DNA from: an uncultured bacterium
GTDB lineage: Bacteria; Babelota; Babeliae; Babelales; Babelaceae
Assembly: GCA_963722385.1 (NCBI GenBank)
Contig: CAVRKK010000001.1
Coordinates: 1-64,000 of the forward strand
Reading direction: 5' to 3'
Length of the DNA: 64,000 nucleotides
The notes under the pieces were generated by a model that was given only the letters and a program-made list of their open reading frames with translations, was not told the DNA's origin and searched no databases. Position numbers and translations under genes: made by a program. Of this stretch, positions 29,798-58,225 are shown one piece after another (the stretch's first letter is position 1; every line of letters starts with the position of its first letter).

Positions 29798-30049
29798 TGT
29801 AGTCTCTCCATGTTAAAGCCTCATGACTTTTATTGCTGAGAATTAGTGATTAATTATAAAGTATATATACGAATGGCTATTCCAGCAAAGTTAGATGGGA
29901 TTATTGTCTTATGAATATGATAGTTATTTGTGAACCTGAGATCGATGATAAAAATCAAAGTAACGTATCGTGTGTCCGAAGCAGCCTTCGAGAGAAGGCG
30001 ATTAGCGTACATGGCCTCGAGCCTCATTTACGCCTATGCGGCGAGCATT

Positions 30050-30222
30050 GAATGGCCTACGCGGCCGGCGGCAGGGCAGGTTCTCGCCAACCTCCCTGCA
30101 CCCAGGCGCCGGGCAAGCCCTGGACCCTCGGAACGGCTCTAACTACTGCACCTTGCCTGCCACTCCTCCTCCCCACGCTACAAAGCCAGGGACGCATGCG
30201 TCGGGCTATTCGTAGAGCCTAA
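30050..30222. repeat. GC-rich structured dispersed element, copy A
   Basis: Collinear similarity to 58081-58225 and 43627-43830. Confidence 0.75.
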
Positions 30223-30379
30223 TAAGGCTTTTCTATTTATCCCTTGTTTTGGAAACTATTTATTAGTGAAGTGGGTTATTGAATCTTTCTCCGCAGGAGA
30301 AATGCGCAAAGTGCCTAGCCATGTGCCCCACATGGGTACGGCACATTACAACAGCATACAATTATAGCAAGAATCAGCA

Positions 30380-30525
30380 GGTTAGCAGCGCAAGCAGGCA
30401 ACGGGTGCAGGGCCGCCGCCCTTCGACCTGTCCTGCGAAGCCTCGGCGAAGCGGGAAGCCTTGGCGAAGAATGGGCCGCTCGCCGCGGAGGCGCGCCAGC
30501 CGCGCAGGCTATTCAAATGCCGGCA
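30380..30525. repeat. Inverted partial copy (D) of the dispersed element with a nested REP-like doublet
   Basis: Reverse complement reads GAATAGCCTGCGCGGCTGGC...CCCTGCACCC; contains GAAGCC(TC/TT)GGCGAAG twice (30437-30451, 30455-30469). Confidence 0.6.
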
Positions 30526-30808
30526 TGAGATATGCTCATTGCTCGATGGTAGCTAGGTATATGGATTAGGCTTTTTCGATGCATTTTTGCCAAATTCTGG
30601 TATATTCGCTTTGCTTTTGTCAGAAAACCCTTGTTTTTATAGAAAAGTTAGCATGAGGTTCATTTTAACAGCCATAGCCCATTAGTTACCTTGGTCCTTT
30701 GTCTTCACTCTTACTTCGTTATTAGTTGTCTAGATTTGATTTAATTATCGACAAATATTCAAATATTGCTTATGGTGATAACACGTTTAATAAAAGCAAG
30801 GAGCAGGT

Positions 30809-31387
30809 GTGAAAAATTTAATTATTCTTATTTTTTACTTACTTCTAATACAGAGTACTCTAGGCCAAACTACTGATGAATTAAAGTACGTTGCCTATGC
30901 ATTAGCAGAAAAGGAAGCTCTGCAAAAAGAGGCAGCCATGGATAATTTACGAAGTAGCTGGAGGCTTATCTTGCAAGCGCGCGATTTATTTTTTACATCG
31001 AGGGAAGAGATTCGAAATGAAGAGGAGCAGCGTGAAAAGATTCAAGCAGAAGCGGGTGATTTTTATCATACCGATCAGCGTTTGCAACATCTCTTAAGGC
31101 ACTGGAAACATGCAAATCAGGAAGCTTTTGAATTGTATCACAAAGCTTTTAAAGCTACATATGAGGTAACAAAAAAATTTAATCTAGCGAGCTTTACGCA
31201 GGGCCTTACGCATGAAGATTTGAAAATTGTCTTGGCTTATGTAAGCGAGACGCAACTCATGAGGCAACGGACAGCTCATGCGCGGCAAGAGGCCTTGGCG
31301 TATTTTACGAGCAAGCTTTTGTCGATTATGAACTCAAAGTCACGAGAGCTTGAGGTCAAGTCCAAGCCCTGCATAAAATTGTGGTGA
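30809..31387 (+). CDS. Secreted helical hypothetical protein
   Basis: AAGGAG RBS, GTG start, signal peptide, coiled-coil-like composition. Confidence 0.65.
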   Translation: MKNLIILIFYLLLIQSTLGQTTDELKYVAYALAEKEALQKEAAMDNLRSSWRLILQARDLFFTSREEIRNEEEQREKIQAEAGDFYHTDQRLQHLLRHWKHANQEAFELYHKAFKATYEVTKKFNLASFTQGLTHEDLKIVLAYVSETQLMRQRTAHARQEALAYFTSKLLSIMNSKSRELEVKSKPCIKLW

Positions 31388-33076
31388 TGCGGTAATGGGT
31401 AGCTTGCCATGCGCTGGCAACGCGCCCACTATAACGCTGACTGCCGCTTCCTGTGCATCAGGGTCGTCCTCGTAGGCGACAACGATTGCATCTTCCTCGC
31501 CAAAAAGATTGAGGCAATAGGGGTTACCAAAGACAGCGAGTATGATCTGCTTGCCGTCAAGCCTGAGGAGCTCGAGTAAGTCACGCGTACTTTCTGATAT
31601 GCCGTAGTCTTTATAATGTGTTGTTGAGGCGATACCAAATAAGCCTATAACTACTGTTTGTGTTTGCTCAAGCGCGTGTACAAGAAGATGTTTTGTATAA
31701 TCATCGAGGTTCTGCGGAATATGCAAAACACTTTCTACTCCAGCATGTCCCCATGCATTTGCAAATGCGCTTTCAAGCGATGGTTCCCTATCATAATATG
31801 CAGCATCGCCAATTTGCAACACAGCAAACGAGTGTTTTGTGTCCAAGGGGAGGGCATTATTTTGGTTGCGTACAACGGTCATTATTTCTTGGTAAAGCTG
31901 TTTCTTGAGCACATAAGCAGCGCTGGTATTGATCGTTGTGACGGGGGCAGTCGTATTCACCAATTTTTCTTGATGCAGTCCGACGCGCTCTTTTGCTTGC
32001 AGCATTTTTAAAACACGTTCATCAAGCTGTTTTTCAGTAATCTTGCCGTCATGCAGCGCCGATTCTAGGTAATCAATTGCTTGGGGGATATCAAGTGAGC
32101 AAATAAAGATATCGTTGCCAGCAACAAAAGCCTGGAGCTCAAGCTCGCCAATTGCTATGTCATTTAACGCACCCATGCATAGCGCGTCGGTGATAACGAG
32201 CCCTTTAAATGCCAACTCTTCTTTGAGCAGTTGCGTAATAATAGGGTAAGAAATCGTTGAGACAGCATGAGGGTCGAGAGAAGGAATTTTTAAGTGCCCT
32301 GGCATAATGGCGTCAACGTGCTCATCAATAACCGCTTTAAAGGGAACAAGCTCAATTTCATGCAAGCGTTTTTTGTCATGATTGATGACGGGAAGCGAAA
32401 AATGGGAATCAATATCCGTATCTCCATGTCCAGGGAAGTGCTTTGCACAGGCGATAACGCCGGCATCTTGTAGACCCTTCATGAAAAGCGTCCCCAAGTG
32501 CGCAACCCGTTGTGGGTTTTCGCCAAATGAGCGCGTTCCTATAATGGGGTTGAGGGGGTTGTTGTTGATGTCAACCACGGGTGCTAAATTGACATGTACA
32601 CCGATTGCCTTACATTGCCTACCTATCTCTGTGCCGAGCTCGAAGATCAACGATTCGTTTTGAATTGCGCCTAACGCAATGTTGCGAGGAAACCTGACCG
32701 CGCCATCTAAGCGCATATCGAGTCCCCATTCAAAGTCTTCTAAAACTAGTAATGGGTGCCTACTAAGGGCTTGGTATTTGTTGCTCAAGAGCATTTGGTT
32801 TGGTATGTCATTTCTACCCAAATAAAGAATGCCACCGACGTGATAATCCTTGATGAGGCTTTCAATATAAGCCGGCTCAATTGAGGGAAATCTCATGCCG
32901 CCAAGTAAAGCGAGAAATTCTTTCTTCGCGATCGTTACCATAAAGAGCTGGCCAATTTTTTCGCGCACGCTCATGTGTTGCAACGTTTGATGTGCCCAAG
33001 ATTCTTGGATTTTCTGAGAAAAAAGAACGGAGGGAATCAAAAAGCTTGCTAATATCAGTAGTCTGGTATTCATCAT
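31340..33076 (-). CDS. GH3 beta-N-acetylhexosaminidase (NagZ-like, two-domain, secreted)
   Basis: EKIGQL, APVVDINNNP.NP.IG.RSFGE, KHFPGHGDT..DSH, ITDAL.M. Confidence 0.93.
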   Translation of the reverse strand: MMNTRLLILASFLIPSVLFSQKIQESWAHQTLQHMSVREKIGQLFMVTIAKKEFLALLGGMRFPSIEPAYIESLIKDYHVGGILYLGRNDIPNQMLLSNKYQALSRHPLLVLEDFEWGLDMRLDGAVRFPRNIALGAIQNESLIFELGTEIGRQCKAIGVHVNLAPVVDINNNPLNPIIGTRSFGENPQRVAHLGTLFMKGLQDAGVIACAKHFPGHGDTDIDSHFSLPVINHDKKRLHEIELVPFKAVIDEHVDAIMPGHLKIPSLDPHAVSTISYPIITQLLKEELAFKGLVITDALCMGALNDIAIGELELQAFVAGNDIFICSLDIPQAIDYLESALHDGKITEKQLDERVLKMLQAKERVGLHQEKLVNTTAPVTTINTSAAYVLKKQLYQEIMTVVRNQNNALPLDTKHSFAVLQIGDAAYYDREPSLESAFANAWGHAGVESVLHIPQNLDDYTKHLLVHALEQTQTVVIGLFGIASTTHYKDYGISESTRDLLELLRLDGKQIILAVFGNPYCLNLFGEEDAIVVAYEDDPDAQEAAVSVIVGALPAHGKLPITASPQFYAGLGLDLKLS

Positions 33077-33254
33077 GCTCTCCTTTTTTAGATGATATTT
33101 CAAGGTATCATAGAAAAAGCATCATGCATAGCGGCTCTCTTTTAAAAGTCAAAATTTTTGCTTATTAGAGTTGACTGCTGCCTTAGATGTGCACTTACGG
33201 TCGCTGCCGCTAATTTTGCCATAATTATAGGTTTGAAGAAGTAATAGATTATCT

Positions 33255-33296
33255 AAACAAAGAAGCCGCTGTACTATAACGGCGGCTTCTTTGTTT
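33255..33296 (-). terminator. Intrinsic terminator
   Basis: AAACAAAGAAGCCGCTGT-6nt-ACGGCGGCTTCTTTGTTT right after the stop of 33302-33796. Confidence 0.75.
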
Positions 33297-33301
33297 TATT
33301 C

Positions 33302-33796
33302 TTAAAGCTCGGTCTTGAGCTTTTTCATCTCACTATAAGCTGCTTCAGCTTCCTTGATTTCTTGATTAAGTTTTTCAAAATTTTCCCAGGCTTCTAATGT
33401 TCTTTGAGCATTTCTTTCTACCCGCGACGTGATAGCTTGTGGTCCGAGAACGCTTGATAGATCGCTCAATTCGCGCAAGCGCTGTTTGCCGCTCATTGCG
33501 TTAATGCGAAGAATATGCGCATGCTTTACGGCAAGTTGGGGCCGAGTAGTTCCATGTATTCTGATTCTGTCTTCTATGATGGCAATCTGCTTATTAACTA
33601 ATTCGTCAAGCTTGTTTTCTTGCTCTTTGTAAGCTGAATAAGCATCGGTAATTTGGTGCTCCAGCATGTATATCTTGAGCCTAAGGCGATCTAAAGGGGA
33701 AAGTGTCTCTGATTGGTAGATTAGCTTCTTCTCTATGGTGTGCAGGTAAGAACTACATGCCAATAGTGATATGATGAGAAAAAAGTAGGATTTCAT
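33302..33796 (-). CDS. Secreted coiled-coil hypothetical protein
   Basis: AAGGAG RBS, signal peptide, followed by a terminator. Confidence 0.7.
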   Translation of the reverse strand: MKSYFFLIISLLACSSYLHTIEKKLIYQSETLSPLDRLRLKIYMLEHQITDAYSAYKEQENKLDELVNKQIAIIEDRIRIHGTTRPQLAVKHAHILRINAMSGKQRLRELSDLSSVLGPQAITSRVERNAQRTLEAWENFEKLNQEIKEAEAAYSEMKKLKTEL

Positions 33797-33965
33797 GATG
33801 TCTCCTTTTGGTTACATTCAGCTTCGATTAAACTTTATTTCATTATCTATTATATAATTTCTTGTAATAAAATATCAATCGTTGTGTCGAGAAAAACCTG
33901 GTTGCCTTGCCAACAGGCCTCGATTTGTAGTAGATTTAAGCCATCAGTGTTTTCGGGAGTTTGCA

Positions 33966-34763
33966 ATGCGCATAAGTGAAATTATTGCTTGTTTAATTTT
34001 GGTATCTTTTACCAGCATGTTTCCTTTTAAAATCGACCGCGTTATTTTGGCCGCCGATGCCAATCCTTTCTACTTAGATTTTTGGCCCTATGCGGCACGT
34101 GCTTGGAAGCAATTAATTGGCGTAACACCGACGCTCGCGCTCGTTGCTGATGAGTCAGTGCAGGTAGACGAATCGCTCGGTGAGGTAATTCGATTTCGAC
34201 CAATCAAGGGAATGCCAGCTGGTTTACAAGCGCAAGTCATCAGGCTTTTGTTGCCTGTCTTGTTTCCGCATGATATTTGTATTTTATCCGATATAGACCA
34301 ATTGCCACTAAAAAAGTCATATTTTCACGAGCCGATTGCCTCGATACCGCCTGATAAATTTGTTATCTATAATGATGATGCCTATCGTGGTGCCGAGCAG
34401 CGATTTCCTATTTGTTATTGCGTCGCAAAAGGCACGACCTTTCGCGACCTGTTTCACGTTAGCACGATTCAAGGGATCCGACGCTTGATGGGCGAATGGT
34501 ACCGGTTCGGCTGGGGCTTTCACACCGATGAGCTGGTGCTGTATCGTTCTCTTATGGACTGGAAAGAAGCCGCCAGTCGCCTGGTCAAGTTGGGCGATGG
34601 TTTGGGGCCATCGGATAAGCGTCGAATAAATCGGGCCTTTTGGCACTACGATCCCGCGCTCCTTAAAAAAGGCTATTATGTCGACGCCCACTTACTGCGT
34701 CCCTATAAGCGCTACAAAAAGGAGCTTGATGCCTTGGCCCAACTAGCTGGTGTGAGAAGCTGA
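33966..34763 (+). CDS. Hypothetical protein, possible GT-A-fold glycosyltransferase
   Basis: N-terminal leader; N..YL.FWP...AW, Q..RL, ILSDID (DxD), W..DE, D.H..RP motifs. Confidence 0.6.
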   Translation: MRISEIIACLILVSFTSMFPFKIDRVILAADANPFYLDFWPYAARAWKQLIGVTPTLALVADESVQVDESLGEVIRFRPIKGMPAGLQAQVIRLLLPVLFPHDICILSDIDQLPLKKSYFHEPIASIPPDKFVIYNDDAYRGAEQRFPICYCVAKGTTFRDLFHVSTIQGIRRLMGEWYRFGWGFHTDELVLYRSLMDWKEAASRLVKLGDGLGPSDKRRINRAFWHYDPALLKKGYYVDAHLLRPYKRYKKELDALAQLAGVRS

Positions 34764-34789
34764 CGTTGTGTCTTCGCAAGATAAGGTAG

Positions 34790-35170
34790 TTAACATATTT
34801 TATTTTTGACGATGTCGAGTATTTCTTCGGCACATCTAATGCTGTATTCTGCAACTGAAGTATCAGGAATTAAAAGGTGGGAATCAGGATAGCGCGTTCC
34901 TTGGATATAGGGGTTAAGATCGGTTGCATGTTGAAAAAATTTTGAAAAATCCGAATCGATGGCTATACACTGCTTTACTAAGTTAGCCAAATCGTGGATT
35001 TTTCCGGGGTCAATATTATGAAAAAACAAAAATGCTTTAAGTGCTTTCTCCGCGCATTGTTGCGTTAGAAATAACGTATGAGGAATGAGAATTTCCGGCG
35101 GTGTTAATAATTTTTTGGCTGCTACTAAATCAGTTTCTGCAACAGCGACCCATTCTTCATGCTTTTGCAT
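34790..35170 (-). CDS. HEPN domain protein (HEPN/MNT TA)
   Basis: W...A..DL..A, F..QQ.AEKALKA.L, K.HDL..L, TRYP. Confidence 0.92.
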   Translation of the reverse strand: MQKHEEWVAVAETDLVAAKKLLTPPEILIPHTLFLTQQCAEKALKAFLFFHNIDPGKIHDLANLVKQCIAIDSDFSKFFQHATDLNPYIQGTRYPDSHLLIPDTSVAEYSIRCAEEILDIVKNKIC

Positions 35171-35486
35171 AAATTTGTTTGCCCTTGTGCTTAACCTTAT
35201 AAGGTATAGTAAAAATGGCTTGAGAGTCTTGTTCAAATTCTTCTGCCGTAAGAAGAAGAATATCTTTAGGTATATCAAGTAGTGCAAGAGCCCGGTGTCC
35301 AGCTACTAGATCAGCATAGCGATTATCTGTTTTTTCAACCACGATTAGAAAGTCTAAGTCACTGTATTCGTCAGGGTTTCCCCAGGCGTAAGAACCAAAA
35401 AGATATATAGCGACAGGATTATAGAGTTTAATGAGCTTATCGCGGGCTTCATTTACAATTCTTTCAATAGATTGCTGATTACGCAT
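35157..35486 (-). CDS. Minimal nucleotidyltransferase (MNT antitoxin)
   Basis: YLFGSYAWG.P...SDLD motif; overlaps the HEPN gene. Confidence 0.92.
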   Translation of the reverse strand: MRNQQSIERIVNEARDKLIKLYNPVAIYLFGSYAWGNPDEYSDLDFLIVVEKTDNRYADLVAGHRALALLDIPKDILLLTAEEFEQDSQAIFTIPYKVKHKGKQIYAKA

Positions 35487-35666
35487 AGGACCTCATTTTA
35501 CCATTTATACTTTGAGCATAGCATACTACCTGGCCAATATGAATATTTGCTGGGTTTTCTGAAGAATTCCTTGTTGTAGGTGTTGCTTGAAAATTTCGCC
35601 TCCTAACCGTTTACAAAACGTCTGGAGAGTATATACTAGTATATAAGTTAAAAAACGTATTGTGAC

Positions 35667-35743
35667 GGTGAGTGTAGCTCAGTTGGCAGAGCATCAGATT
35701 GTGGTTCTGGGGGTCGTGGGTTCAAATCCCACCACTCACCCCA
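35667..35743 (+). tRNA. tRNA-His(GTG)
   Basis: Cloverleaf, G-1, anticodon loop TTGTGGT, GGTTCAAAT T-arm, encoded CCA. Confidence 0.96.
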
Positions 35744-35804
35744 AAAGATGCTATTTTTTGCCCTTGCACAAGGGCGCAAAAAAACGTAAACTTAGAGAAA
35801 TAAT

Positions 35805-35880
35805 CGGGGCGTGGCGCAATTGGTAGCGCACTCGCTTTGGGAGCGAGGGGTTGTCAGTTCGAGTCTGGCCGCCCCGACCA
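35805..35880 (+). tRNA. tRNA-Pro(TGG)
   Basis: CGGGGCG/CGCCCCG acceptor stem, anticodon loop TTTGGGA, GTTCGAGT T-arm, encoded CCA. Confidence 0.96.
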
Positions 35881-35885
35881 TTTTT

Positions 35886-36983
35886 ATGATTGATCTACGA
35901 TATGTACGCTCATGCGACTGGATTAGCGTACTCCTCACCATCCTTCTCTCGCTCGTTGGCATCTTAATGGTGTTAAGCGCGACGTATCGTCCTGAAGTGG
36001 CGTTTTCTATTTTCTTTAAAAAGCAGCTTTTTGGCATTATTTCAGGGCTTATTATTTATAGTATCTGTTGCCTGATCGATTATCGTACCTTTGAGCGATG
36101 GGGCTACTTTTTATATTTTGCGGTTATTGCGCTTTTAATTGTTACCATGATTAAAGGTAGCTGGGGGATGGGCGGGCAGCGCTGGATCAATCTTGGTATT
36201 ACTAAGTTTCAACCTTCTGAATGCGCAAAGCTCTTTTTTGCGCCCTTTCTTTCATATTATTTAGCTACCGAAAAGTCATATCCTTATACCTTTCGTACTT
36301 TTGCGCCGGTCTTGGCTCTCTTGGGGGTGAGCGTACTGCTTATACGCAATCAGCCAGATCTGGGGACCGCGCTTGTTCTTCTTTTTTCAGGTCTCATATT
36401 ATTATGGCTTGCTGGCATAGGCAAAAGGTTCTTTTTTGTGTGTGCTTTTGTTGGCCTCATTATGGCACCGGTGGGATGGAAGATTTTGAGGCCTTATCAG
36501 CGCCAGCGGATTGCCGTTTTTTTGGGAGGTGGTGACCTTTCGCAGGAGCGCTACCAAATCGAGCAATCTAAGATCGCTATAGGCTCAGGCGGTATTCGCG
36601 GTAAAGGATTTTTAAAGGGAACGCAGAATAAGCTTCATTTCTTGCCAGCGGGCAGGACCGACTTTATCTTTTCTGTGTTATGTGAGGAATGGGGATTTAT
36701 AGGGGCATTTTTGGTATTATTGCTGTATGCGCTCCTTTTTTATCGACTTTTGGTGCTAACGGCTGCTATCAAAAATTTTTATACTCAGATCCTTGCGGTG
36801 GGGCTCATAACGCCTTTGATGCTTTCGGCTCTCATCAATATAGGCATGGTAACTGGCTTACTACCTGTTGTTGGTATTCCTTTGCCTTTTATGACGTATG
36901 GCGTAACTCATCTTTGGATGGAATATGCGAGCCTTGGCTTTATTCAAAGCATTATGATGAGGCGCTTTCTTATGCTCCGATGA
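35886..36983 (+). CDS. rodA: SEDS peptidoglycan glycosyltransferase RodA
   Basis: GGQRWI.LG, FQPSE.AK, QPDLGTA, LRPYQRQRI, YQ..QS.IAIGSGG, TDFIF, LPVVGIPLPF. Confidence 0.95.
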   Translation: MIDLRYVRSCDWISVLLTILLSLVGILMVLSATYRPEVAFSIFFKKQLFGIISGLIIYSICCLIDYRTFERWGYFLYFAVIALLIVTMIKGSWGMGGQRWINLGITKFQPSECAKLFFAPFLSYYLATEKSYPYTFRTFAPVLALLGVSVLLIRNQPDLGTALVLLFSGLILLWLAGIGKRFFFVCAFVGLIMAPVGWKILRPYQRQRIAVFLGGGDLSQERYQIEQSKIAIGSGGIRGKGFLKGTQNKLHFLPAGRTDFIFSVLCEEWGFIGAFLVLLLYALLFYRLLVLTAAIKNFYTQILAVGLITPLMLSALINIGMVTGLLPVVGIPLPFMTYGVTHLWMEYASLGFIQSIMMRRFLMLR

Positions 36984-37053
36984 GGTATAGAATTCGTGAG
37001 GGAGTAAAATTATGGTAAACTTTTTGATAATATTTTATTGATAGTGCGGATTT

Positions 37054-38091
37054 ATGAGTACAAAAGCACCCATGCAGCAGCCAATTTCATTGCTTGCCCT
37101 TGCTGAAGCTGCCGACGATCGTTCGCCCGACTTTCAGCCAAAGAGCTTTGACGACTATCTTGGGCAAAAGGAGCTTAAGCATAAGTTGTCGATCTATACC
37201 CAAGCCGCTGCGATGCGGGGCGAAGCGCTTGATCATCTTTTGTTATTTGGACCTCCAGGGCTTGGTAAGACGACGCTTGCCCAAATCATGGGCCATGTTA
37301 TGGAGGTTGCTGTCAAGATTTGTAGCGGGCCCATGGTGGAGCGGACAGGTGATTTGGTCGCTCTCTTAACCAGTTTGCAAGAACGTGATATTCTTTTTAT
37401 TGATGAGATTCACCGTATTCCTATAGCTGTCGAAGAAGTTCTGTATAGTGCTATGGAGCATTATAAAGTTGATGTTATTATCGGTCAGGGCGCTGGCGCA
37501 CAGTCGATCACGGTTCCTCTCAATCCTTTTACGCTCGTGGGTGCTACGACAAAGCCGGCGCTGCTTTCGGCGCCTTTGCGCACGCGTTTTGGCATTACCG
37601 AGCGGCTTGATTTTTATAAGGATGAGGAATTACAGGCAATTGTTGAGCAAAATGGGCACTTTCTTGGTATTGCTATTGTGCCGGAAGCAGCGCTTATGAT
37701 TGCCCAGTGCTCACGAGGGACGCCGCGCATTGCCAAGAAGATATTGAGGAGAGTGCGTGATTTCGCCCAAGTAAACCAGGCCGCGGTGGTCGATATGGCG
37801 TTGGTTGAAAGCGCTTTAGCGCTGCTTGGTATTGATAGCCAAGGGCTTACGGTGCTTGATCATACCTTGCTACGGACGATCATAGATTTTTTTGGTGGTG
37901 GTCCCGTTGGCTTAGAGACGATTGCTTCAATGGTGGGTGAAGATAGCTCGACGCTTGAGGAGGTGTATGAGCCCTACCTTTTGCGTAAGGGGTATTTGGA
38001 AAGGACGCCGCGGGGGCGTCAAGTCCCAGCCAAGACGCTTGTTGAGCTTAAAAAGCAGTATTATGGGCAAAAAAATATTTTCAAGGAATAA
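37054..38091 (+). CDS. ruvB: Holliday junction branch migration ATPase RuvB
   Basis: GPPGLGKTTLA, LFIDEIHR, VGATT, SRGTPRIA, GGPVG, EPYL, RTPRGR. Confidence 0.98.
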   Translation: MSTKAPMQQPISLLALAEAADDRSPDFQPKSFDDYLGQKELKHKLSIYTQAAAMRGEALDHLLLFGPPGLGKTTLAQIMGHVMEVAVKICSGPMVERTGDLVALLTSLQERDILFIDEIHRIPIAVEEVLYSAMEHYKVDVIIGQGAGAQSITVPLNPFTLVGATTKPALLSAPLRTRFGITERLDFYKDEELQAIVEQNGHFLGIAIVPEAALMIAQCSRGTPRIAKKILRRVRDFAQVNQAAVVDMALVESALALLGIDSQGLTVLDHTLLRTIIDFFGGGPVGLETIASMVGEDSSTLEEVYEPYLLRKGYLERTPRGRQVPAKTLVELKKQYYGQKNIFKE

Positions 38092-38096
38092 ACGAC

Positions 38097-38813: not shown

Positions 38814-38852
38814 GCCTTGGTTGCTTCGTACTTTTAAAACAAAGAGAAAAAT

Positions 38853-39749: not shown

Positions 39750-39881
39750 GTGGGTTAAAGCCCTCTTTTTTATATTAATAGAACAAAATTTTTAAACAAG
39801 ATACAAATAGACAAAACAAGGTTTTTAAGGCAAGCTAAAATTAGCTATATGATTTGTTGCCTATAAAAGAGGGAGGACTCT

Positions 39882-43626: not shown

Positions 43627-43830
43627 GAATGGCCTATGCGGCCAGCAGAAGGGTGCTAGCGTGACCTACGCTAATCGCCTTCTTTCGAAGGCTGCTCCGG
43701 ACAAAACATGCGTTACTTCGCATGTTTTGTCTTTCACCCCACACCACGGTTCCTTGGTCCCTCCAAACGGCCCCAACTCGGTCGCTTCGCATCCTAGATG
43801 CTCGAGCTTCCTCAAACAGGGAGGCCTCAG
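43627..43830. repeat. GC-rich structured dispersed element, copy B
   Basis: GAATGGCCTATGCGGCCAGC start, CCTTGGTCCC..AACGGCCCCAACT core, GGAGGCCTCA end; internal 37-nt module matches 29973-30009 inverted (35/37). Confidence 0.7.
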
Positions 43831-44089
43831 CCGACTCCGCCATAGTGGCATCTAACAATCGACCTGATGTAATGAAGCTACGACGGCCGGATCAGAGTTG
43901 TTTATTAAAATGGAGATTTTTAACCTTATTTTGTTAATTTCACAATTCGCTCAATGAAAGATTGGTCCATAAATTGCTGATTGTTGAGCTGGATGGTTCG
44001 AGTTATATGAGAAAGATTTAGGTGTTCCCTTGTGTTATAATATATATCTTATAGTTTTAGATGGGTAAAAATCTGATAACAAAAAAGAG

Positions 44090-49217: not shown

Positions 49218-49223
49218 GCACGA

Positions 49224-49862: not shown

Positions 49863-50006
49863 TTATCCTCTGATCGTATATAAAACAGTGTTATTTTTGG
49901 TGACATTTTTCAAAATATATACGCTGCATATCTGCAGCGTATATATTTGAGTTGCCTTACAAAAACATTAATAATGCAGCGTATATAACTGAATTACTCT
50001 TCCGTA

Positions 50007-50252
50007 CTAGGGAGAATGTTTTTTGAACGCTTCCTCCGTAGCAGTGACAATGTTTTTTGGGATGAGCGGTTGGCATTTACGATGTAAAGCCCATTCTTCG
50101 ATTACGCAGTAACCCTTGGAGCCGAGTAGCAAATAGGCCCCGCCCAAATTCTTGCAGAACATTGCTGCAGGGTTGGGCATACCGATTTGTGGCGATACTG
50201 TTGCTGATATAACTAATGCAATTAATGGTACAAGTGCTAATACCTTCTTCAT
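50007..50252 (-). CDS. DUF333 (putative hemolysin) small secreted protein
   Basis: Signal peptide then IGMPNPAA.FC..LGG...GYC..EEWAL. Confidence 0.8.
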   Translation of the reverse strand: MKKVLALVPLIALVISATVSPQIGMPNPAAMFCKNLGGAYLLLGSKGYCVIEEWALHRKCQPLIPKNIVTATEEAFKKHSP

Positions 50253-50668
50253 GGTATTCTCCTCAAGTAAACGGATTTAAAAATGACTGATAGATTTTAT
50301 ATTTTTCCTTGCCTTTTCGCCTTATAACTCTTATATTATTTCAGTTATAACATATTTATACAAGAAATATCAACAAATTTGCGGACAAGAGAATAAAAAA
50401 GGTTTTATTCTTCCCCGTGTTCAGCACCAAACCAGGGGTAATTTTAAGAACTTTGTTAAAATTTGTTTGGTTTTCACCATTTTTTAAAAAGCTCTGGGGT
50501 AAATAAGCTCTGAAATCACCATGGATATTTAAATATTCCCTTTATCCCATCAAGCAAGATCGTTAAAGCCCAGGAAGCGAACACTGGCAAAGGTGTAGAA
50601 GTGGGTAAGATGACTAATGGGAGTGATAAATTATTGAGTTCTTGTCAAAAATATTGCTATTTTGATAA

Positions 50669-51073
50669 ATGCATATTCGAAGCAGAAAGCGCCGGCTTTT
50701 AAGCCGGCCGTGCTTTACTCGTTACGTATACTCAGCGGGCTATCAACGTTGGAAACGAATTACCGAATCCCAGTGGCTTCATGAAAAAATTAGTGATGAA
50801 TCTGAAAAAGCGCGGAAGCTTGCTGAGGCAGTCCGTGAAATAAGCAATAATCTTCCATCTGAATATGTTACAACACGGCTATTTTACCATTACAATCTCT
50901 TGCGTGAGCTGCGTAAGGAGAAGCCGGCTGATTTGCCTGAACATATCGATAGCGTCTGGTTAGAGAATGAAATAAAGTCATCGCTTGCTCAAACGAGGTT
51001 TGCCAAATTTGTCAAAGATCGATCCGCTTGGCTGGATCGCCGATTATATCCGCTGGTATCGGAAATAGCTTAA
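50669..51073 (+). pseudogene. Fragment carrying one copy of the repeat seen in 26598-28121
   Basis: GYQRWK...W...YNLLRE...P.D..EHIDSVWL; no convincing N-terminus. Confidence 0.5.
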
Positions 51074-51157
51074 ATTTTAGAAAAAACGACTTGCTTTCGC
51101 TTTTAAAAAAATGCTATTATAAGATAATAATATTTTAATTAACCAATATAGGCCTAA

Positions 51158-52576
51158 ATGATTGCAATATTGTTTTCATACATGATAGCTGCTTTATTGA
51201 GCTTCGTTATTTTTGCTGAAGAAAATACTCAGCCCTGCTTACCAGAATTTACTATGGTTACGCTCTCCACGCCCAATCGTGCGGGCTTTGCTGATATGGT
51301 TGAGAAAAATCAGCGAGTGTATGCTCGGCGTCACGGCTATGGCTACGTGAAGTTTGATCGTTCGTTAGATCCTTCTCGTCCTGAAGAGTGGAGCAAAATT
51401 AAGGCTTTACTGGAAGTGCTCAATGACACTAATCCCTGCTGGCTTCTATGGATAGATGACGATATTATAATCACCGACCCTCAAAAGCCTTTGACCTATT
51501 TTACTGATAAATATGGCCATGGCAAAGATCTCATTATTGCGCGCGACGCTGAGTATCAGCGGGGGGTTCCCTTTAACAATGGTATCTTTCTGCTGCGTAA
51601 TAGTCCTTGGAGCAGAGAATTTCTTAAAAATGTTTGGCAAGAGGGACCTAAAAGATCTTATCTGGTACGAGGCAAATCTCTTTTGGAGCAGCAGACGATG
51701 ACCGACCTTATCAATGAGAATGCGTTGGATGCTGCCAAATCTATCATTATTAATCAACGAGAGATAAACTCTTTTTTACGCTCGCCCTTTCAATACCCTA
51801 ACGATCCACCGGAATCTAAATGGCAACCCGGCGACTTCGCGGCCCATGTTACCGGTATGGCTCTTGAGCAACGCCGTGACATCATCAAGGAACTGTTAAC
51901 AGATTCGTATCGAGTGCCGGCCACTATGGTGGCTGAAGAAAGAAATCTTCAGAATAAGTTAAAAAAGCAGGAAGCAGAGAAATTAGTACAAGAACATATT
52001 TTAAAAACGGGCACTGATAAATTGACCGCTGATGCCTTAAGAGATGCTGCTTTGCAGGGTGATCCCGTTGCTCAACTTGAGGCGGCGGTTCTTTCTTTAC
52101 GTGAAGGTGATGAGGAAGGTGCAAAATTTTACCTTAATCTTGCTCGCCTCCATGGCGTTGGGCAAGCAGGAAAAGTTTTAGACCATTTACCCCAGGTACC
52201 CAATCTGCGACCGCTCAGATCCCAGGAAGACGAATGCTCGCTTAAGCTTGCTGCTGACGCGGGTGATCCGAAAGCTATGCTTGATATAGGCCTCATATAT
52301 TCGCGATCCAATAACAAAGAGAAAGAAGCGCGCTCTTATCTTAATCGCGCGAGTGAAAATGGTGTTATGGTAGCTACCGCAATCTTAAAAAATAGTGATA
52401 AGCAAGAACACCTGCTCAAGTTTGCGGCTGATACTGGTGATGCAAACGCTCAGTACCAACTCGGCTGGTTTTATCTAACGCGCGCTCGAAATAGCGAAGC
52501 AGAGCACTATTTTAGCTTGGCTCTGCATAATGGTGTTGAGCTTGCAGAAATTATGCTCGGGATCGCCAAAAATTGA
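51158..52576 (+). CDS. GT34 (GMA12/MNN10-like) glycosyltransferase fused to Sel1/TPR-like repeats
   Basis: N...YA..HGY, WSKI, WLLWIDDD, NNG.FLLRN..WS..FL, EQ, WQPGDF..H..G; C-terminal AA..GD..A...LG..Y repeats. Confidence 0.85.
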   Translation: MIAILFSYMIAALLSFVIFAEENTQPCLPEFTMVTLSTPNRAGFADMVEKNQRVYARRHGYGYVKFDRSLDPSRPEEWSKIKALLEVLNDTNPCWLLWIDDDIIITDPQKPLTYFTDKYGHGKDLIIARDAEYQRGVPFNNGIFLLRNSPWSREFLKNVWQEGPKRSYLVRGKSLLEQQTMTDLINENALDAAKSIIINQREINSFLRSPFQYPNDPPESKWQPGDFAAHVTGMALEQRRDIIKELLTDSYRVPATMVAEERNLQNKLKKQEAEKLVQEHILKTGTDKLTADALRDAALQGDPVAQLEAAVLSLREGDEEGAKFYLNLARLHGVGQAGKVLDHLPQVPNLRPLRSQEDECSLKLAADAGDPKAMLDIGLIYSRSNNKEKEARSYLNRASENGVMVATAILKNSDKQEHLLKFAADTGDANAQYQLGWFYLTRARNSEAEHYFSLALHNGVELAEIMLGIAKN

Positions 52577-52604
52577 TATGAGCCGTAGCTATATAAATGC
52601 GTAT

Positions 52605-52877
52605 CTATAGTGTTAGCACATCCGTATCGCCATATCGGCCAGGCCAAAAGTATCCTCTATCTGGGTAGCCGAAATCATCAACTTCGAATGGCTCACAGGA
52701 CTTTTTTGCGTTTCCCTTGATATCGTAAATTGTTCTGCACCAACCAATTTGGCCGTTCCACCGCATACAATATTGGCCTTCTTTTTTGCAAAGAATAGGT
52801 GCTTGAGGACAATATTTTTCGGCAGAAGCTTGTGCCATTATGCTTAATAGAACAAACAACAGATACTTTTTCTTCAT
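52605..52877 (-). CDS. Small secreted Cys-rich protein
   Basis: GGGGG RBS, MKKKYLLFVLL..AQASA signal, CKKEGQYC...GWC...C. Confidence 0.7.
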   Translation of the reverse strand: MKKKYLLFVLLSIMAQASAEKYCPQAPILCKKEGQYCMRWNGQIGWCRTIYDIKGNAKKSCEPFEVDDFGYPDRGYFWPGRYGDTDVLTL

Positions 52878-52912
52878 AGCCTTTCCCCCTTTATTGCTAC
52901 GATCTTTTTTCC

Positions 52913-53149
52913 TCAATCAATTTTGGGCCCTGTGCCGTGCTCACAAACAAAGCATTTACTGTCCAAAGAGTTATATACTTGGCGACAAAATCCCCACGTT
53001 CTGCCATCCTTCATGAGGCAGGGGTCGCGCTCCTTGCAATCAGTAGATTTTGGTGGCGGCGTAATTATTTCGCACGTACCCTCACGTGCCCAGCACGCAT
53101 TCATGGTTAGGAGTGAGAGAGCCATAAATATTTTCAGTTTCTTTATCAT
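52913..53149 (-). CDS. Small secreted Cys-rich protein (paralog of its neighbour)
   Basis: GAGG RBS, signal peptide, CKERDPC...WGFCRQVY...C..C. Confidence 0.7.
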   Translation of the reverse strand: MIKKLKIFMALSLLTMNACWAREGTCEIITPPPKSTDCKERDPCLMKDGRTWGFCRQVYNSLDSKCFVCEHGTGPKID

Positions 53150-53312
53150 AATTTCCTCGGTTGCCAATAAGCCGATTACAATTACATATTAGAAATATTA
53201 TATATGAAAAAGCAAGGCTTTTTTAAGAATTTGGTTAATCTTGTATAAATTAGCATAGATCTCCTCTGCTATCTTTGATAAACTAACACTATACCTTTTT
53301 CTTGTAAGAATT

Positions 53313-56300
53313 ATGTCTCAACATTTTACGCATCTGCATGTGCACACCGATTATTCTTTGTTGGATGGCGCTATAGCGCTTGAGAAGCTTGTTGCCTTTG
53401 GCCAGCATAACAAGTGTCAAGCGCTTGCTATCACTGATCATGGCAATATTTTTGGTGCAGTTAAATTTTTTCAGCTATGCAAGAAGGCCGGCATAAAGCC
53501 GGTTTTGGGTATGGAGGCATATCTTACTGAAGATGTACGCGTTAAAGATGTTACCAATAAGTATTATCACATAATTATTATCGTTGAGAATGCGCAAGGC
53601 TATAAGAATCTTTGCAAGCTTCTCTCATTTGCGTATTCTGATGGCTTTTACTTTAAGCCGCGCATTGATTATAAAATGCTCGAAGCTCATTCTGAGGGGC
53701 TTATTGTCACGTCAGCCTGTTTGGGAGGTCATATTCCCACCTTGCTCATGCAAGAGCAGTATAATCAGGCAGAGCAATGGATTGATTGGTATATGCGGGT
53801 GTTTGGTCCTGAGCGCTTTTACCTCGAAGTACAGCCTGAGGATCAAAAAGACCAAAAACTTTTGAATGACCAGTTATGGCAGTTGAGCGCAACAAAGGGC
53901 ATTCAGGTGGTGGCGACAGGTGACTGCCATTACGTTTCTGCTGATGATCGGGAAGCGCATGAGGTAATGCTGGCTATACAAACGCATCATAAGGTGAGCG
54001 ACCCTGACCGCTTTACGTTTGGTGATTGTCGGGTTCATTTACGTTCAGCGCAAGAGATGCTCGAGGTTTTTAAGGACCACCCCGAAGCCGTTTGGGCATC
54101 AGGTGTTATCGCCGACCGGTGTAATTTTACTTTCGAGACGGGCAAGCTTTTCTTCCCTCAGTTTGAGATCCCGCCAGCTTATACACAAGACAGCTATTTT
54201 AAGCAGTTGTGCGTTCAGGGGTTGCAGTCGTTGATCGATACTCAGCGCCTTGAAAAGAGCAAAGAGGAAGTATACTGGGAGCGTTTGTACCTCGAGGTAG
54301 ATCTGATCATAACGATGGGCTTTGTGGGCTATTTTTTGGTGGTAAGTGATTTTATTCAATGGGCTCGTGTACAGCAGATACCTGTCGGCCCGGGGCGCGG
54401 GTCAGCAGCTGGATCGCTTGTTGCATGGGCCTTGCAAATTACCGATATTGATCCCTTGCGGTACAATTTACTTTTTGAGCGCTTTTTAAATCCTGAGCGC
54501 GTAAGCATGCCTGATATCGATATCGATTTTTGCATTGAGGGTCGTGATCGCGTTATTAACTATGTGCGCCAGCGTTATGGTCATGATAAGGTATGTCAAA
54601 TTATTACCTTTGGTACCATGATGGCTAAGGGCGTTATCAAAGATGTTGCTCGCGCGCTCGGGTTCCCTTTTGAGGATTCCAATGCGCTGACTGATCTGAT
54701 TCCTGACCAGCTTAAAATTACGCTTAAAGAGGCATTGGAGGCTGAACCGCGCCTGAAGAAGCTTATTGAGAGCAATCCGCAAGTTGCCAAGCTTTTTGAT
54801 TTGGCATTCCGTCTTGAGGGCCTAACGCGCCATGCGTCCAAGCATGCTGCAGGCATCGTGATATCGCCAGAGCCTATTTCTGAGGTGCTTCCTGTCTACG
54901 TGCCTCCTAAAACTACTGATCTGGTAACTCAATATGCTATGACGGAGCTTGAAAGTCTGGGCTTTCTCAAGATGGATTTTTTGGGGCTCAAGAACTTAAC
55001 GCTTATCCAACGAGCGTGCGCGCTTATTGAAAAGAATCATAATAAGTTGCTTGATATTCCCTGCTTACCGTTAGAAAATCCTAAGACCTTTGCTCTTTTG
55101 TGCCGCGGCGATACATCAGGCGTATTCCAGTTGGAATCTGATGGTATTAAAGATGTTTTGCGTCGTTTGCAGCCGGAAGTATTTGAGGACATCATTGCCG
55201 TGAACGCTCTTTATCGGCCCGGACCACTTGGCTCTGGTATGGTGGATGATTTTATTGAGCGTAAGCATGGGCGCCAAAAAATAGCGTATATTTTCCCTGA
55301 GCTTGAGCCTGTTCTTAAAGAAACGTACGGCGTTATTGTCTATCAGGAGCAGGTAATGAAGATCGCTTCGGTTATTGCTGGCTACAGCTTGGGCGAAGCT
55401 GATATTTTGCGGCGTGCTATGGGCAAGAAGAAGCCTGAGGAGATGGCAAAGCAAAAAACAATCTTTGTCACGCGCGCGCAGGAGGGCTCATTCGATAAGG
55501 CAAAAGCAGAGCAGCTTTTCGAACTCATGGCCTATTTTGCTGGCTATGGGTTTAACAAGTCCCACTCAGCGGCTTATGCGCTTATTGCGTACCAGACGGC
55601 CTATCTTAAGGCGAATTATCCTGCCGAGTTTATGGCATGCTTAATATCGCTTGAGGCATCGGATGCTGAAAAGATGGCTTTTTATCTTTCCGAGGCGAAG
55701 ACCTCTGGTATTACTATTTTACCGCCCGATATCAATATGTCGCTGATGGACTTTGATGCGGTTCAAAATACCGGTGAGGCGTTATCGGTACGTTTCGGTT
55801 TAAAAGGTATAAAAAATGTTGGCCAGGCGGCGCTTGAAGAAATATTTCTCCAGCGCGAAAAAGGTGGTCCTTTTATCGACATGCTCGATCTTTGTACGCG
55901 TATTGATCTTCGAGTATGCAATAAGCGTGTTTTGGAGAGCCTTATCTGTTCGGGGGCATGCGATGTCTTGCCAGGCAACCGCGCCCAAAAATGTGAGGAG
56001 CTTGGCAAAATTATTGACCGTGCTTTTGAAAAAAAGAGGGCGGCCGAGACGGGCCAGCTTGGTCTTTTCCACGTTGCTTCTTCAGGAGCCGAGAATTTGC
56101 CTGAGCACTATTCTTTTATTCCGCTTGCCGAGTGGCCGGAGCGCGTTAAACTTGAGAAAGAGAAAGAAGTTGTCGGTATATTTATTACGGCGCATCCTCT
56201 TGATAGTTATGCCCAGATGCTCACCTGGCTTAATGTGGTAACGGTGCAGAAACTTGCTGAGCAAGGGTCGTCTACGCAGAATGTGCTTGTGGTCGGCTTT

Positions 56301-56786
56301 ATTAAGTCATCACGGACGATTACGACAAAGAAGGGCGATACGATGGCTTTTATGCAGCTTGAAGATAAATCGGCAACAGCCGAAATCGTTATTTTCCCCA
56401 AGCTTTATGAAAAAGTATCATCGTGGTTGAAAGAGCATATGACATTTGTTATTGATGGTGTGCCTGATAGCGTCAGTAAAGATCTGGTAAAAATTAAGGC
56501 GCAAAGTATTATTCCCTTGGATCTTCTGGTCAAAGATGGCCTAGGCGTAGAGGGGCTCACGCTAACCCTGCCTGCGATGTTCAGCGAGGAGCTTTTGTCG
56601 TGTATCAAGCAAAGCTTTACCGCCGGGCCGACCAAGCTGAGCTTTGTGGTACACGAAAATGGCAAGCGCCTGCGCATCGCATCAAAAGAGAGAATTGCTT
56701 ATTCGGCTACCGTTTGTTCCTCTTTGGCACAGCACGGCATTGCTATCGCCCTTGATGTAAAGAGCGATTTGACGAGAGTTTCTTGA
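53313..56786 (+). CDS. dnaE: DNA polymerase III alpha subunit
   Basis: HLHVHT.YSLLDG PHP domain, GPGRGSAAGS, PDIDIDF, KMDFLGL, GYGFNKSHSAAY, OB fold. Confidence 0.99.
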   Translation: MSQHFTHLHVHTDYSLLDGAIALEKLVAFGQHNKCQALAITDHGNIFGAVKFFQLCKKAGIKPVLGMEAYLTEDVRVKDVTNKYYHIIIIVENAQGYKNLCKLLSFAYSDGFYFKPRIDYKMLEAHSEGLIVTSACLGGHIPTLLMQEQYNQAEQWIDWYMRVFGPERFYLEVQPEDQKDQKLLNDQLWQLSATKGIQVVATGDCHYVSADDREAHEVMLAIQTHHKVSDPDRFTFGDCRVHLRSAQEMLEVFKDHPEAVWASGVIADRCNFTFETGKLFFPQFEIPPAYTQDSYFKQLCVQGLQSLIDTQRLEKSKEEVYWERLYLEVDLIITMGFVGYFLVVSDFIQWARVQQIPVGPGRGSAAGSLVAWALQITDIDPLRYNLLFERFLNPERVSMPDIDIDFCIEGRDRVINYVRQRYGHDKVCQIITFGTMMAKGVIKDVARALGFPFEDSNALTDLIPDQLKITLKEALEAEPRLKKLIESNPQVAKLFDLAFRLEGLTRHASKHAAGIVISPEPISEVLPVYVPPKTTDLVTQYAMTELESLGFLKMDFLGLKNLTLIQRACALIEKNHNKLLDIPCLPLENPKTFALLCRGDTSGVFQLESDGIKDVLRRLQPEVFEDIIAVNALYRPGPLGSGMVDDFIERKHGRQKIAYIFPELEPVLKETYGVIVYQEQVMKIASVIAGYSLGEADILRRAMGKKKPEEMAKQKTIFVTRAQEGSFDKAKAEQLFELMAYFAGYGFNKSHSAAYALIAYQTAYLKANYPAEFMACLISLEASDAEKMAFYLSEAKTSGITILPPDINMSLMDFDAVQNTGEALSVRFGLKGIKNVGQAALEEIFLQREKGGPFIDMLDLCTRIDLRVCNKRVLESLICSGACDVLPGNRAQKCEELGKIIDRAFEKKRAAETGQLGLFHVASSGAENLPEHYSFIPLAEWPERVKLEKEKEVVGIFITAHPLDSYAQMLTWLNVVTVQKLAEQGSSTQNVLVVGFIKSSRTITTKKGDTMAFMQLEDKSATAEIVIFPKLYEKVSSWLKEHMTFVIDGVPDSVSKDLVKIKAQSIIPLDLLVKDGLGVEGLTLTLPAMFSEELLSCIKQSFTAGPTKLSFVVHENGKRLRIASKERIAYSATVCSSLAQHGIAIALDVKSDLTRVS

Positions 56787-57405
56787 GGCGGCTTATTCGA
56801 TTCTTTTATTTATTCACCAGCTTTCTATATTGCATGGTACGCTGAAATACACCATTGCGTTTATAGGTAAGGTAATCTTGAACATACGGTAAACTTTATA
56901 TCATTTATTTCAAGATTTTGTCTTTTATGCTTGTTGCTAGCCAAGGGCATGTAGATTTTGTGAATTACATCATTGGCCTCGATCGTGCCGACAATCTCAA
57001 TCTTAATATGACCTATGCCTATAATCACATAAATTTTCTTCTTAATAACCAAGAATTACAGCATGCAAGCAATACCTATGCCACTATCTATGCTTTACTT
57101 GAGAACTATTATTTTTTCGACATACCAAGAGCGCGTTGAGCAGTCACCTACCGAGTCAACATTATAAATGCTCGGTGCAGGCTTCGAGCTACCCCCATAT
57201 CTTACTACTCGGTTATCGGTTTTATTGTGCAGTATCTAGGCTTGCATTGCTCCCCTAGCGCTCACCTGGGATATATGAAGTGATCGTGTTATTCAGTTTT
57301 TGCCAAGCACTTGTCAGCTAGAACTCACACAAAATTATTGAAACCCGCAATTATTTTGTATTAAGCTATAAAATGTAATTATAAAATAATTAAAAAGGGG
57401 TTTCT

Positions 57406-57756
57406 ATGAAGCATTGTCTGTTATTGGTTAAAATCTTGGGTGCGTTATGTCTTTATGTGTCCGTTTTCACTTTATCGGCGGCGCCCGCAAAGCCTACGTT
57501 TGGCGACTGGGTAAAAAGTTGGGTGGCCTGGTTTAAAGGTGAATCTAAAGAATTTGCTGAGAAAAAATTGAGCAAGGAAAAGCAAGAGTATTACGGTTAC
57601 GCCGGTCCCGTCAAACATCCGACAGAAGTTGAATATTATGGATATTATGAGAGTAAAAAAGGCAAGAAGCCGGAGCTTTTTGGTTTTTACGGTTATTACG
57701 AAACCAAGCCAGGCGCCAAGCCCCATGAATACTATGAATATTATAAAGGCAAATAG
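57406..57756 (+). CDS. Secreted Tyr/Gly/Lys-rich repeat protein
   Basis: Signal peptide; four EYYGY(Y)-like repeats. Confidence 0.75.
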   Translation: MKHCLLLVKILGALCLYVSVFTLSAAPAKPTFGDWVKSWVAWFKGESKEFAEKKLSKEKQEYYGYAGPVKHPTEVEYYGYYESKKGKKPELFGFYGYYETKPGAKPHEYYEYYKGK

Positions 57757-57777
57757 ATTTTGTATTGAAGGTTATTT

Positions 57778-57999
57778 ATGAAGCAATACTTATTAGTTTT
57801 AATGTTCGCGCTTATTTTTAGCCAGGGGTGTGTTGCTATGCACGTGCATGGACCTCGAGTACATAAAGTATGTGACTCACATAATTTAGGGGAACCGTGC
57901 GAACTTTCGCCTACTAAAACTGGTCGCTGTAAACCTTTAACGGTAGAAACAGTGAGAGGCGAGCGAGCGGTTGTTGCGGGGTGCGTACTTTCTAAGTGA
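57778..57999 (+). CDS. Small secreted Cys-rich protein
   Basis: Signal peptide; C.....GEPC......GRC...C. Confidence 0.65.
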   Translation: MKQYLLVLMFALIFSQGCVAMHVHGPRVHKVCDSHNLGEPCELSPTKTGRCKPLTVETVRGERAVVAGCVLSK

Positions 58000-58080
58000 G
58001 AGGAACTTGTTTGCTTTATGGAACAGTTGTCGATCTTTCGCAGGATGCATATTATTAAGCTGTGAGCATTATTTAAAAAA

Positions 58081-58225
58081 GGCCTGCGCGGCCAGCGGCA
58101 AGCGAGGTTCTCGCAAACCCCCTTGCAACTCGTGCGCCAGGGTTCCCCTGGACCCAATCCAAGCGGCCCTACTCATGCACCTTGCATTCCGAAAGAATGC
58201 GCCGGGCTACTCGGAGGGCCTCATC
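58081..58225. repeat. GC-rich structured dispersed element, copy C
   Basis: Collinear with 30054-30222, with compensatory changes in stems. Confidence 0.75.

Follow-up and report, generated by a model that had tools for sequence, protein, structure and literature searches.

Mosaic, hairpin-ended repeats in the genome of an uncultured Babelaceae bacterium: a probable family of non-autonomous mobile DNA

Why should one foldable segment recur between the genes of an uncultured bacterium of the family Babelaceae, and is it an RNA or a piece of mobile DNA? The question was raised by the first 64 kb of contig 1 of the bacterium's assembly (two contigs, 1.60 Mb; genome G000 below), the stretch that is called the window here. 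An earlier note on this DNA had described four copies of a structured element, A, B and C on the forward strand and an inverted D. Our analyses indicate, with a probability that we put at about 0.6, that these copies are the arms and ends of a 52-locus set of non-coding mosaic repeats, likely non-autonomous mobile DNA akin to bacterial interspersed mosaic elements (BIMEs) and to the hairpin-forming doublets of repetitive extragenic palindromes (REPs) known as REPINs, with folded ends that an enzyme would recognise. All four copies exist at the places described and read as stated. Their common start, GGCCTRYGCGGCYRGC (one mismatch allowed), has four matches in the window, at 30054, 43631 and 58081 on the plus strand and at 30495-30510 on the minus strand, compared with none in 100 dinucleotide shuffles. 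R1, a covariance model of the ~85-nt three-hairpin start shared by copies A to C, scored C at 103.7 bits, A at 74.2, B at 27.2 (E 6e-4) and D, on the minus strand, at 20.9 (E 0.012), and a fifth match at 33450-33506 was discounted at E 0.56.

The family of four that the note had proposed stands for the window, but the genome as a whole holds far more. BLAST of A to D against the assembly gave dozens of matches, and in alignments of their flanks the A/C unit as a rule continues into another ~200 nt of conserved hairpins and then into D-type sequence. What had been taken for an inverted partial copy of the A-C unit, namely D, is instead the inverted right end of a composite element that A begins (30031-30510). 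The 11-mer GCCTNNGCGGC occurs 96 times in the genome as against 5-7 times in three shuffles, and 24 clusters in which it appears in plus and then minus orientation measure 295-593 nt end to end. Searches with nhmmer profiles of the modules, which we call T1 (the arm of A, B and C), T2 (an unrelated left arm), R (the right arm) and N (a mini-insert), brought the total to 52 loci, or 15,607 bp (0.97% of the assembly), seen in the gaps between genes, whose positions throughout were taken from crude calls based on open reading frames (ORFs). Twenty of these loci combine T2 with R and seven more add N to that pair; T1 and R stand together at six loci and with N at another six; eight consist of R only, two of T1, two of T2 and one of N. 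The catalogue includes T2-type copies 152 kb past the end of the window, at C1:216706-217010 and 223938-224245.

A complete element, of 295-593 nt, is built of a left arm that is either T1 or the unrelated T2, an AT-rich joint, the right arm R, and one to four tandem hairpin units of 17 nt. Both of its ends are the same domain in inverted orientation, and the ends of T1, T2 and R all follow one plan: a 13-nt hairpin, P0 (NNNC-TNNGC-GNNN, in which three pairs vary, one C-G pair is fixed and the loop is TNNGC), then a 4-nt linker, a hairpin H1 (GCAGG..CCTGC) and the trinucleotide ACC. P0 units are often repeated in tandem, one to four times with a 17-nt period, and a scan for the P0 pattern gave 118 matches with fully complementary stems, most of them, as judged by eye, inside elements. 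The T1 end has an additional hairpin, H2, and beyond the end domain T1 continues with helix H3, which closes around a long inner hairpin (H5/H4), and finishes in a T-rich tail. Just outside the ends lie GAAT on the left and ATTC on the right, so that the inverted symmetry extends a few bases outward. Many T2 left ends are preceded by short tandem GAATTGAAT(C) repeats (e.g., C2:124664-124683 and C2:921572-921591), and several T2 copies have GGCTGACGGAACAGAGC ahead of these, so the true outer boundary of T2 may lie further out. A further helix considered for the end domain, P1a (GCG with CGC around H1), was dropped, as relatives have T at its middle position.

That the stems covary rather than being merely alike was also claimed in the note, and they do so beyond both shuffled and slid controls in each of three alignments. 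The first, A4, comprised the eight full-length copies of the A/C unit (the full T1) in this genome with 36 pairs: 91.2% of its cells were paired versus 85.3% after shuffling, 11 of the 36 pairs had changed on both sides, none of 500 shuffles reached either value, and partners slid out of register were 30-47% paired. The second, A2, took the end domain in 12 sequences (nine from this genome and three from elsewhere; 19 pairs) and was 84.6% paired versus 75.0% in shuffles, with 10 of 19 pairs changed on both sides and slid partners not above 52%. For the third, A3, which held 41 distinct end-domain sequences from other genomes and metagenomes over the same number of pairs and was fitted to the covariance model, which favours structure, the figures were 93.8% versus 65.8%, 18 of 19, and at most 51%. 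It is the slid controls that carry most weight, because related sequences can beat shuffles without any structure. Loops and linkers, by contrast with the changing stems, stay fixed both within this genome and across others. The claim that variable hairpins sit at homologous positions was likewise borne out, since A and the copy at C2:1022708 have a long hairpin where C has a short one.

Is it then an RNA that is being kept folded? Selection on a single RNA strand should leave G·U pairs much better tolerated than A·C, and the non-Watson-Crick cells of A3 include 15 G·T and 17 A·C (of 721), i.e., no preference for the wobble pair. As G·T does not exceed A·C, we read the constraint as one acting on DNA hairpins, on both strands, which also fits the inverted symmetry of the ends. 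Folding both strands of the 30 complete elements gave no consistent winner (247 versus 216 G·U pairs), and copy C folded as RNA had a z of -0.79, with 42 of 200 shuffles folding as well, while the whole element A+D folded as DNA had a z of -2.42. Consensus scans around A and C found promoter-like and terminator-like matches at chance level. The note's statement that no known RNA family is present agrees with our searches: the window has no Rfam match at gathering score apart from two tRNAs, the best weak match in 29900-30650 had an E of 0.44, and Rfam 15 gave no match at gathering score on four loci representing T1+R, T2+R and N. Two coding or catalytic candidates were tried and rejected. A small toxin or peptide gene was set aside for want of a conserved ORF (the largest ORF cluster spanned 13 of 30 elements, and its members varied in length and at their ends), and the hammerhead-like CTGATGAG on the minus strand of the T1 tail, inspected by eye, has no GAAA after its stem, is absent in A and has no Rfam match. 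The elements are probably not an RNA gene, and between the two readings offered by the note, a structure-selected RNA, for which nothing spoke, and a non-autonomous mobile element, it is the latter that we favour on the basis of the inverted structured ends, the mosaic arms, the nested inserts, the patchy multi-copy distribution and the intergenic position at gene 3' ends.

Mobility is most clearly suggested by the nested insert N. Six copies of one subtype, N1a, have a median identity of 0.97, compared with 0.67 and 0.64 for the flanking 45 and 60 nt of host sequence, and all six sit in the loop of H1. Other N subtypes occupy other fixed places (the first hairpin of T2, H3 of T1 and the variable stretch of R), and the N stems covary between subtypes. 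Inserts of 69-77 nt interrupt the arms and remove part of a stem. A 69-nt N that is 97% identical in hosts only ~65% alike suggests, on the evidence of sequence comparison, that this part at least may have moved. The arms that carry it are more diverse, with median pairwise identities of 0.80 for T1, 0.84 for T2 and 0.70 for R. Target-site duplications, which the note had proposed to look for, were not found: over 25 elements, at offsets of up to 5 nt, the best flanking direct repeat averaged 0.76 nt compared with 1.05 ± 0.32 nt for re-paired controls.

The window itself offers an example of nearly every part. Element A opens with an extra P0 hairpin (CGCC-TATGC-GGCG; 30031..30043, plus strand), found in the scan for NNNC-TNNGC-GNNN with complementary stems, as its outermost left unit. 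Copy A proper is its T1 left arm (30054..30240, plus strand; R1 over 30054-30136, nhmmer T1 over 30055-30240), with the terminal domain of P0, H1 and H2, a long closing helix, H3, that encloses an extended inner hairpin, and the T-rich tail; the terminator-like hairpin at 30214-30231 with its T-run is of a kind found at chance level. The R arm follows (30290..30428, plus strand; model positions 7-131 of the nhmmer R profile) and consists of two hairpins, a variable AT-rich stretch and a GCAGGGCC..GGCCCTGC-type hairpin, R being common to T1- and T2-type elements. D is the right tail (30429..30510, minus strand; R1 over 30418-30493); its P0 units, a pair in inverted orientation, lie at 30481-30493 and 30498-30510, and it contains an additional module of the GCCTTGGCGAAG type. 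A degenerate stand-alone N copy (29944..30012, minus strand; nhmmer N profile, E 5.4e-19), 88% complementary to 43667-43718 (inverted repeat I2), lies just to the left of the element. Four DNA sequencing runs contributed contigs of low depth alone, and one of these, from run X1, skips 30358-30475 and may come from another repeat copy.

Copy B (43631..43840, plus strand) is a diverged T1 arm, recognised by R1 over 43631-43770 and by alignment A1, with no R arm match nearby by nhmmer. The loop of its H1 contains an N1a mini-insert of 69 nt and two hairpins (43664..43732, plus strand; nhmmer N, E 5.2e-23), which has 94-97% identity to the five other N1a copies as against 49-71% in the flanks. Copy C (58081..58240, plus strand; R1 over 58081-58166, nhmmer T1 over 58082-58240) is a solo T1 arm without an R arm that ends 27 nt from the 3' end of an ORF on the minus strand (58267-58830).

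The end domain is by no means confined to this genome, and covariance-model searches of other genomes, as the note had proposed, found it in multiple copies and often as inverted pairs. Among 41 genomes of one family (f1), R1 matched six, representing 3 of 21 genera and including 3 of 10 genomes of genus g12: G000 with 19 matches, G001 with 12, G008 with 11, G048 with 7, G051 with 10 and G052 with 15. In a 151-genome sample of the phylum it matched 17 genomes from 5 of 18 families, a lower bound given the stricter filters of that search, and the two sets together contained 21 different positive genomes. Inverted R1 pairs up to ~640 nt apart were present at 12 of 29 fetched loci, and at 3 of 5 in a second set of loci. 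A loose-pattern scan of genome contigs had returned at least 118 stretches from many phyla; when 163 loci from the contig scans were tested by nhmmer, five were kept, four of which were judged true by eye (L092, L157, L158 and L187). T1-like arms of the same plan with different stems occur in the metagenome contigs L157, L158 and L187 and in genomes G150 and G159, and another in L092, a genome contig filed as an uncultured Pseudomonadota bacterium; L157 and L158 retain the T-rich tail behind the closing helix although their stems are quite different. A scan of viral contigs yielded a single locus, unconfirmed by the covariance model. G001 has its own element type, with the same end plan and other inner hairpins (GAGATAGACCGG..CCGGTCTATCTC and TACCAGAAAGGG..CCCTTTCTGGTA).

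The position of the elements was also compared with that of the genes. Eleven of the 30 complete elements occupy gaps between convergent genes, compared with 126 of all 732 intergenic gaps (binomial p 0.009, on the crude ORF calls), whereas divergent-gene gaps account for 4 of the 30 as against 191 of the 732. At least one gene 3' end is touched by 26 of the 30, versus 541 of 732 gaps (p 0.08), and a gene reads into the T side of 21 of the 30 (p 0.04).

As for a mobiliser, the linked Y1/HUH transposase suggested in the note finds no support. The intact and decayed genes of this kind in G000 (PF01797; two of each) belong to 570-nt IS200-like units whose ends, with hairpins CCCCAGGG..CCTGGGG and GCCGGC..GCCGGC, are unrelated to those of the elements; the intact genes have no GCCTNNGCGGC motif nearer than 4.9 kb, BLAST of the unit with its flanks matched no element locus, and G001 and G051 have no PF01797 match at all. 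The window contains 43 nt (50677-50719) that are 100% identical to the right end of this unit (as at C2:344270-344839 and C2:544670-545239), a lone fragment of an end, without an adjacent transposase gene. Over the 41 genomes, PF01797 was present in 12, PF01548 in 11, PF01609 in 24 and PF00665 in 17. G000 has 19 PF01609 matches, one of them an ISAs1-like DDE transposase ORF of 399 aa (C2:1023300-1024500) that starts ~0.3 kb after the T1+R element at C2:1022708-1023084; no other adjacency to an element was seen. The sole longer stretch between inverted ends that was examined, 1.6 kb in G048, holds a DprA-like gene, and no autonomous parent with the same ends was seen in a search that covered these four Pfam transposase families in the 41 genomes.

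Several observations weigh against the elements being mobile DNA. Most arms are old, and current mobility is indicated only indirectly and only for N, where gene conversion confined to N could imitate it. None of the four transposase families tracks the element, no mobilising enzyme was found among them, and all four are missing from G001, which has 12 R1 matches; the preservation of paired stems where no transposase is known also fits a function for the host. Searches of relatives produced no clean pair of filled and empty sites: against G001, which has diverged too far (66% in coding DNA), the region 27000-33500 had no match and within 55500-61000 only dnaE matched, L240 had no flank match, and in genus g95 one flank gene was common and its neighbours differed. 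In addition, an element lies directly after glyA in both G000 and G001, which belong to one genus, and G001 has one directly after dnaE (53313-56786 in the window), 1.3 kb beyond which copy C is found in G000; prolonged retention owing to some role in the host, or a shared hot spot, could explain these sites equally well. The G001 elements concerned, at L246 (G001:C1:479633-483715) after glyA and L208 (G001:C1:1502613-1505684) after dnaE, are of that genome's own type. The two glyA-site elements have a common junction (GGTAAGG..ATA.CGCCT), different interiors and apparently opposite polarity, and double occupancy as at glyA was met at one of three loci tried. Such sites fit old resident copies evolving in concert, or a shared hot spot.

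How would the facts look if the elements had ceased to move? On one account they are cassettes taken over by the host, immobile now, whose hairpins act in place and could end or protect the transcripts reading into them or bind a nucleoid protein, roles that have been reported for REP and BIME elements. Their position at gene 3' ends (26 of 30), in convergent gaps (11 of 30 versus 17% of gaps) and with a gene reading into the T side (21 of 30, p 0.04) would suit this, as would old arms whose stems are still 91-98% paired, the occupation of the glyA 3' site in two species of the genus, the 12 matches kept by G001 in the absence of the four transposase families, and the terminator-like hairpin and T-run in which copy A ends. 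Yet a needed function would be distributed more evenly than 6 of 41 family genomes, or 3 of 10 in genus g12; terminator-like matches stand at chance level and copy C has none; the G·T preference that an RNA role predicts is missing; and purifying selection against harmful insertions gives a 3'-end position too. We consider this account unlikely. Multi-copy small RNA genes, in which the T1 arm would be a structured RNA of ~160 nt with its own promoter and an end at the T-rich tail, we find the hardest of all to credit. Covarying helices with conserved loops, the T-rich tail kept in L157 and L158 with their quite different stems, and a promoter-like TTGTCG-17-TATTAT that ends 26 nt before copy C might be cited for them; but that promoter match is at chance level (0.9 expected), the supposed start of the RNA is the domain that also ends the element in inverted orientation, G·T is not above A·C, copy C folds no better than shuffles (z -0.79; 42/200), Rfam has no match, and the arms are broken by inserts of 69-77 nt, at the cost of part of a stem.

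The alternatives that accept mobility differ in the enzyme. A classical miniature inverted-repeat transposable element (MITE), an internally deleted insertion sequence whose duplex terminal inverted repeats are bound by a DDE transposase, would likewise have inverted ends, a length of 300-600 nt, many copies and no ORF, and the 19 PF01609 matches of G000, with the ISAs1-like copy ~0.3 kb from C2:1022708, would also speak for it. What makes it improbable is that the ends keep pairing and not sequence (18 of 19 pairs changed on both sides), which is unexpected for a protein that reads duplex DNA, and that they consist of one to four tandem hairpin units; there is no target-site duplication, no longer element turned up in which the same ends enclose a transposase gene (the G048 stretch has its DprA-like gene), and PF01609 and PF00665 are both absent from G001, PF01609 from G052 and PF00665 from G051. 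The end domain has been kept by compensatory change in at least five families of the order, also in genomes without the four transposase families, and the N of the H1 loop looks recently active, on which grounds one may entertain, as a tentative and rather doubtful idea, a new class of hairpin-recognising mobile DNA whose mobiliser is either undescribed or a housekeeping enzyme that acts on folded single strands of both DNA strands. On the reading that we prefer, of non-autonomous REPIN- or BIME-like DNA, it would be the DNA hairpins that are constrained and not one RNA strand, copies would arise by a copy-and-paste process without target duplication and would survive chiefly at gene 3' ends, where the harm done is small, and N may be the currently or most recently active part.

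REP, BIME and REPIN elements are short imperfect palindromes outside genes, found singly, in tandem or as inverted pairs, which form mosaics and leave no target duplication; they prefer gene 3' ends, have lineage-specific sequences and persist vertically for a long time, and the REP signature is a conserved GT[AG]G next to the palindrome. Like them, the present family has many extragenic copies of a short imperfect palindrome (96 motif matches versus 5-7 in shuffled sequence), inverted palindromes around a spacer (24 clusters), mosaics, no target duplication, a position at gene 3' ends and long persistence. Unlike them, it has a unit hairpin of no more than 13 nt with two others after it, and its much longer spacer, of 150-500 nt, is itself made of further hairpins in alternative versions. 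No gene for a REP-associated tyrosine transposase (RAYT) flanked by palindromes was found in the genomes searched, where the PF01797 genes are IS200-like and two carrier genomes have none. Nor is GT[AG]G conserved: the loop reads GCRNA on the other strand, and GTAG occurs only in the TAC-loop variant GCCTACGCGGC, 13 of the 96 motif matches. Because it departs from them in the RAYT gene and the GT[AG]G signature, the family is likened to REP and REPIN in its workings rather than counted among them. By analogy these elements, known with their RAYT transposases from Enterobacteria and Pseudomonas, would nonetheless be the closest known kind (PMC3337134, PMC3116915 and bioRxiv 10.1101/2022.05.22.493013).

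BOX and Correia elements, among other known repeats, are looser analogues. The ends of the present elements keep pairing and not sequence, and no duplication flanks them, which sets them apart from the Correia elements of Neisseria, whose inverted repeats are conserved in sequence and which make a TA duplication. Correia elements are non-coding, 100-160 bp long, bounded by inverted repeats, situated at gene ends and without a transposase of their own, and in all but that length the likeness holds. The palindrome-associated elements derived from IS200/IS605 (PATEs) resemble N, which has asymmetric ends with subterminal hairpins, no inverted repeats, no duplication and an insertion site in a hairpin loop; N differs in that its ends are unlike those of the resident IS200-like unit and no common target tetranucleotide lies to its left, and the main element differs in having inverted ends. 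The BOX elements of pneumococci have the order boxA-boxB-boxC. Modular and highly structured small interspersed repeats are what the two have in common, and the unrelated sequence and host phylum, the inverted structured ends and the alternative left arms are where the family here departs from it. BOX elements of Streptococcus pneumoniae are judged parasitic, with slow turnover, and their secondary structure likely affects co-transcribed genes (PMC3049150).

Some other features of the window should be mentioned. The two tRNAs, tRNA-His (GTG) at 35668-35743 and tRNA-Pro (TGG) at 35805-35880, lie 61 nt apart, and contigs that two soil runs hold from other organisms stack up on both tRNAs to a depth of 35-43. 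Long arrays of diverged direct repeats (10273-12229, 22177-22977 and 13882-15635), with periods of ~144 and 150-162 nt and 60-88% identity, look like the coding repeats of large repeat proteins.

What we have, then, belongs to a familiar kind of bacterial repeat but forms a family that is new, with the T1 arm, the three-hairpin end domain found across the order, the lack of a tracking transposase among the four families compared and the young N insert as its novelties. To our knowledge, descriptions of small structured repeats exist for few bacterial phyla, and a full-text literature search found nothing relevant in print on such repeats in this phylum. The family provides a marker and a covariance model for annotating ~1% of such genomes, sequence that would otherwise pass for candidate RNAs. 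The family also raises the question of which agent keeps and multiplies hairpin elements in genomes that are reduced, depend on a host and lack a matching transposase, and should the mobiliser prove to be new, the mini-insert N, which targets a hairpin loop, would be a handle for finding it.

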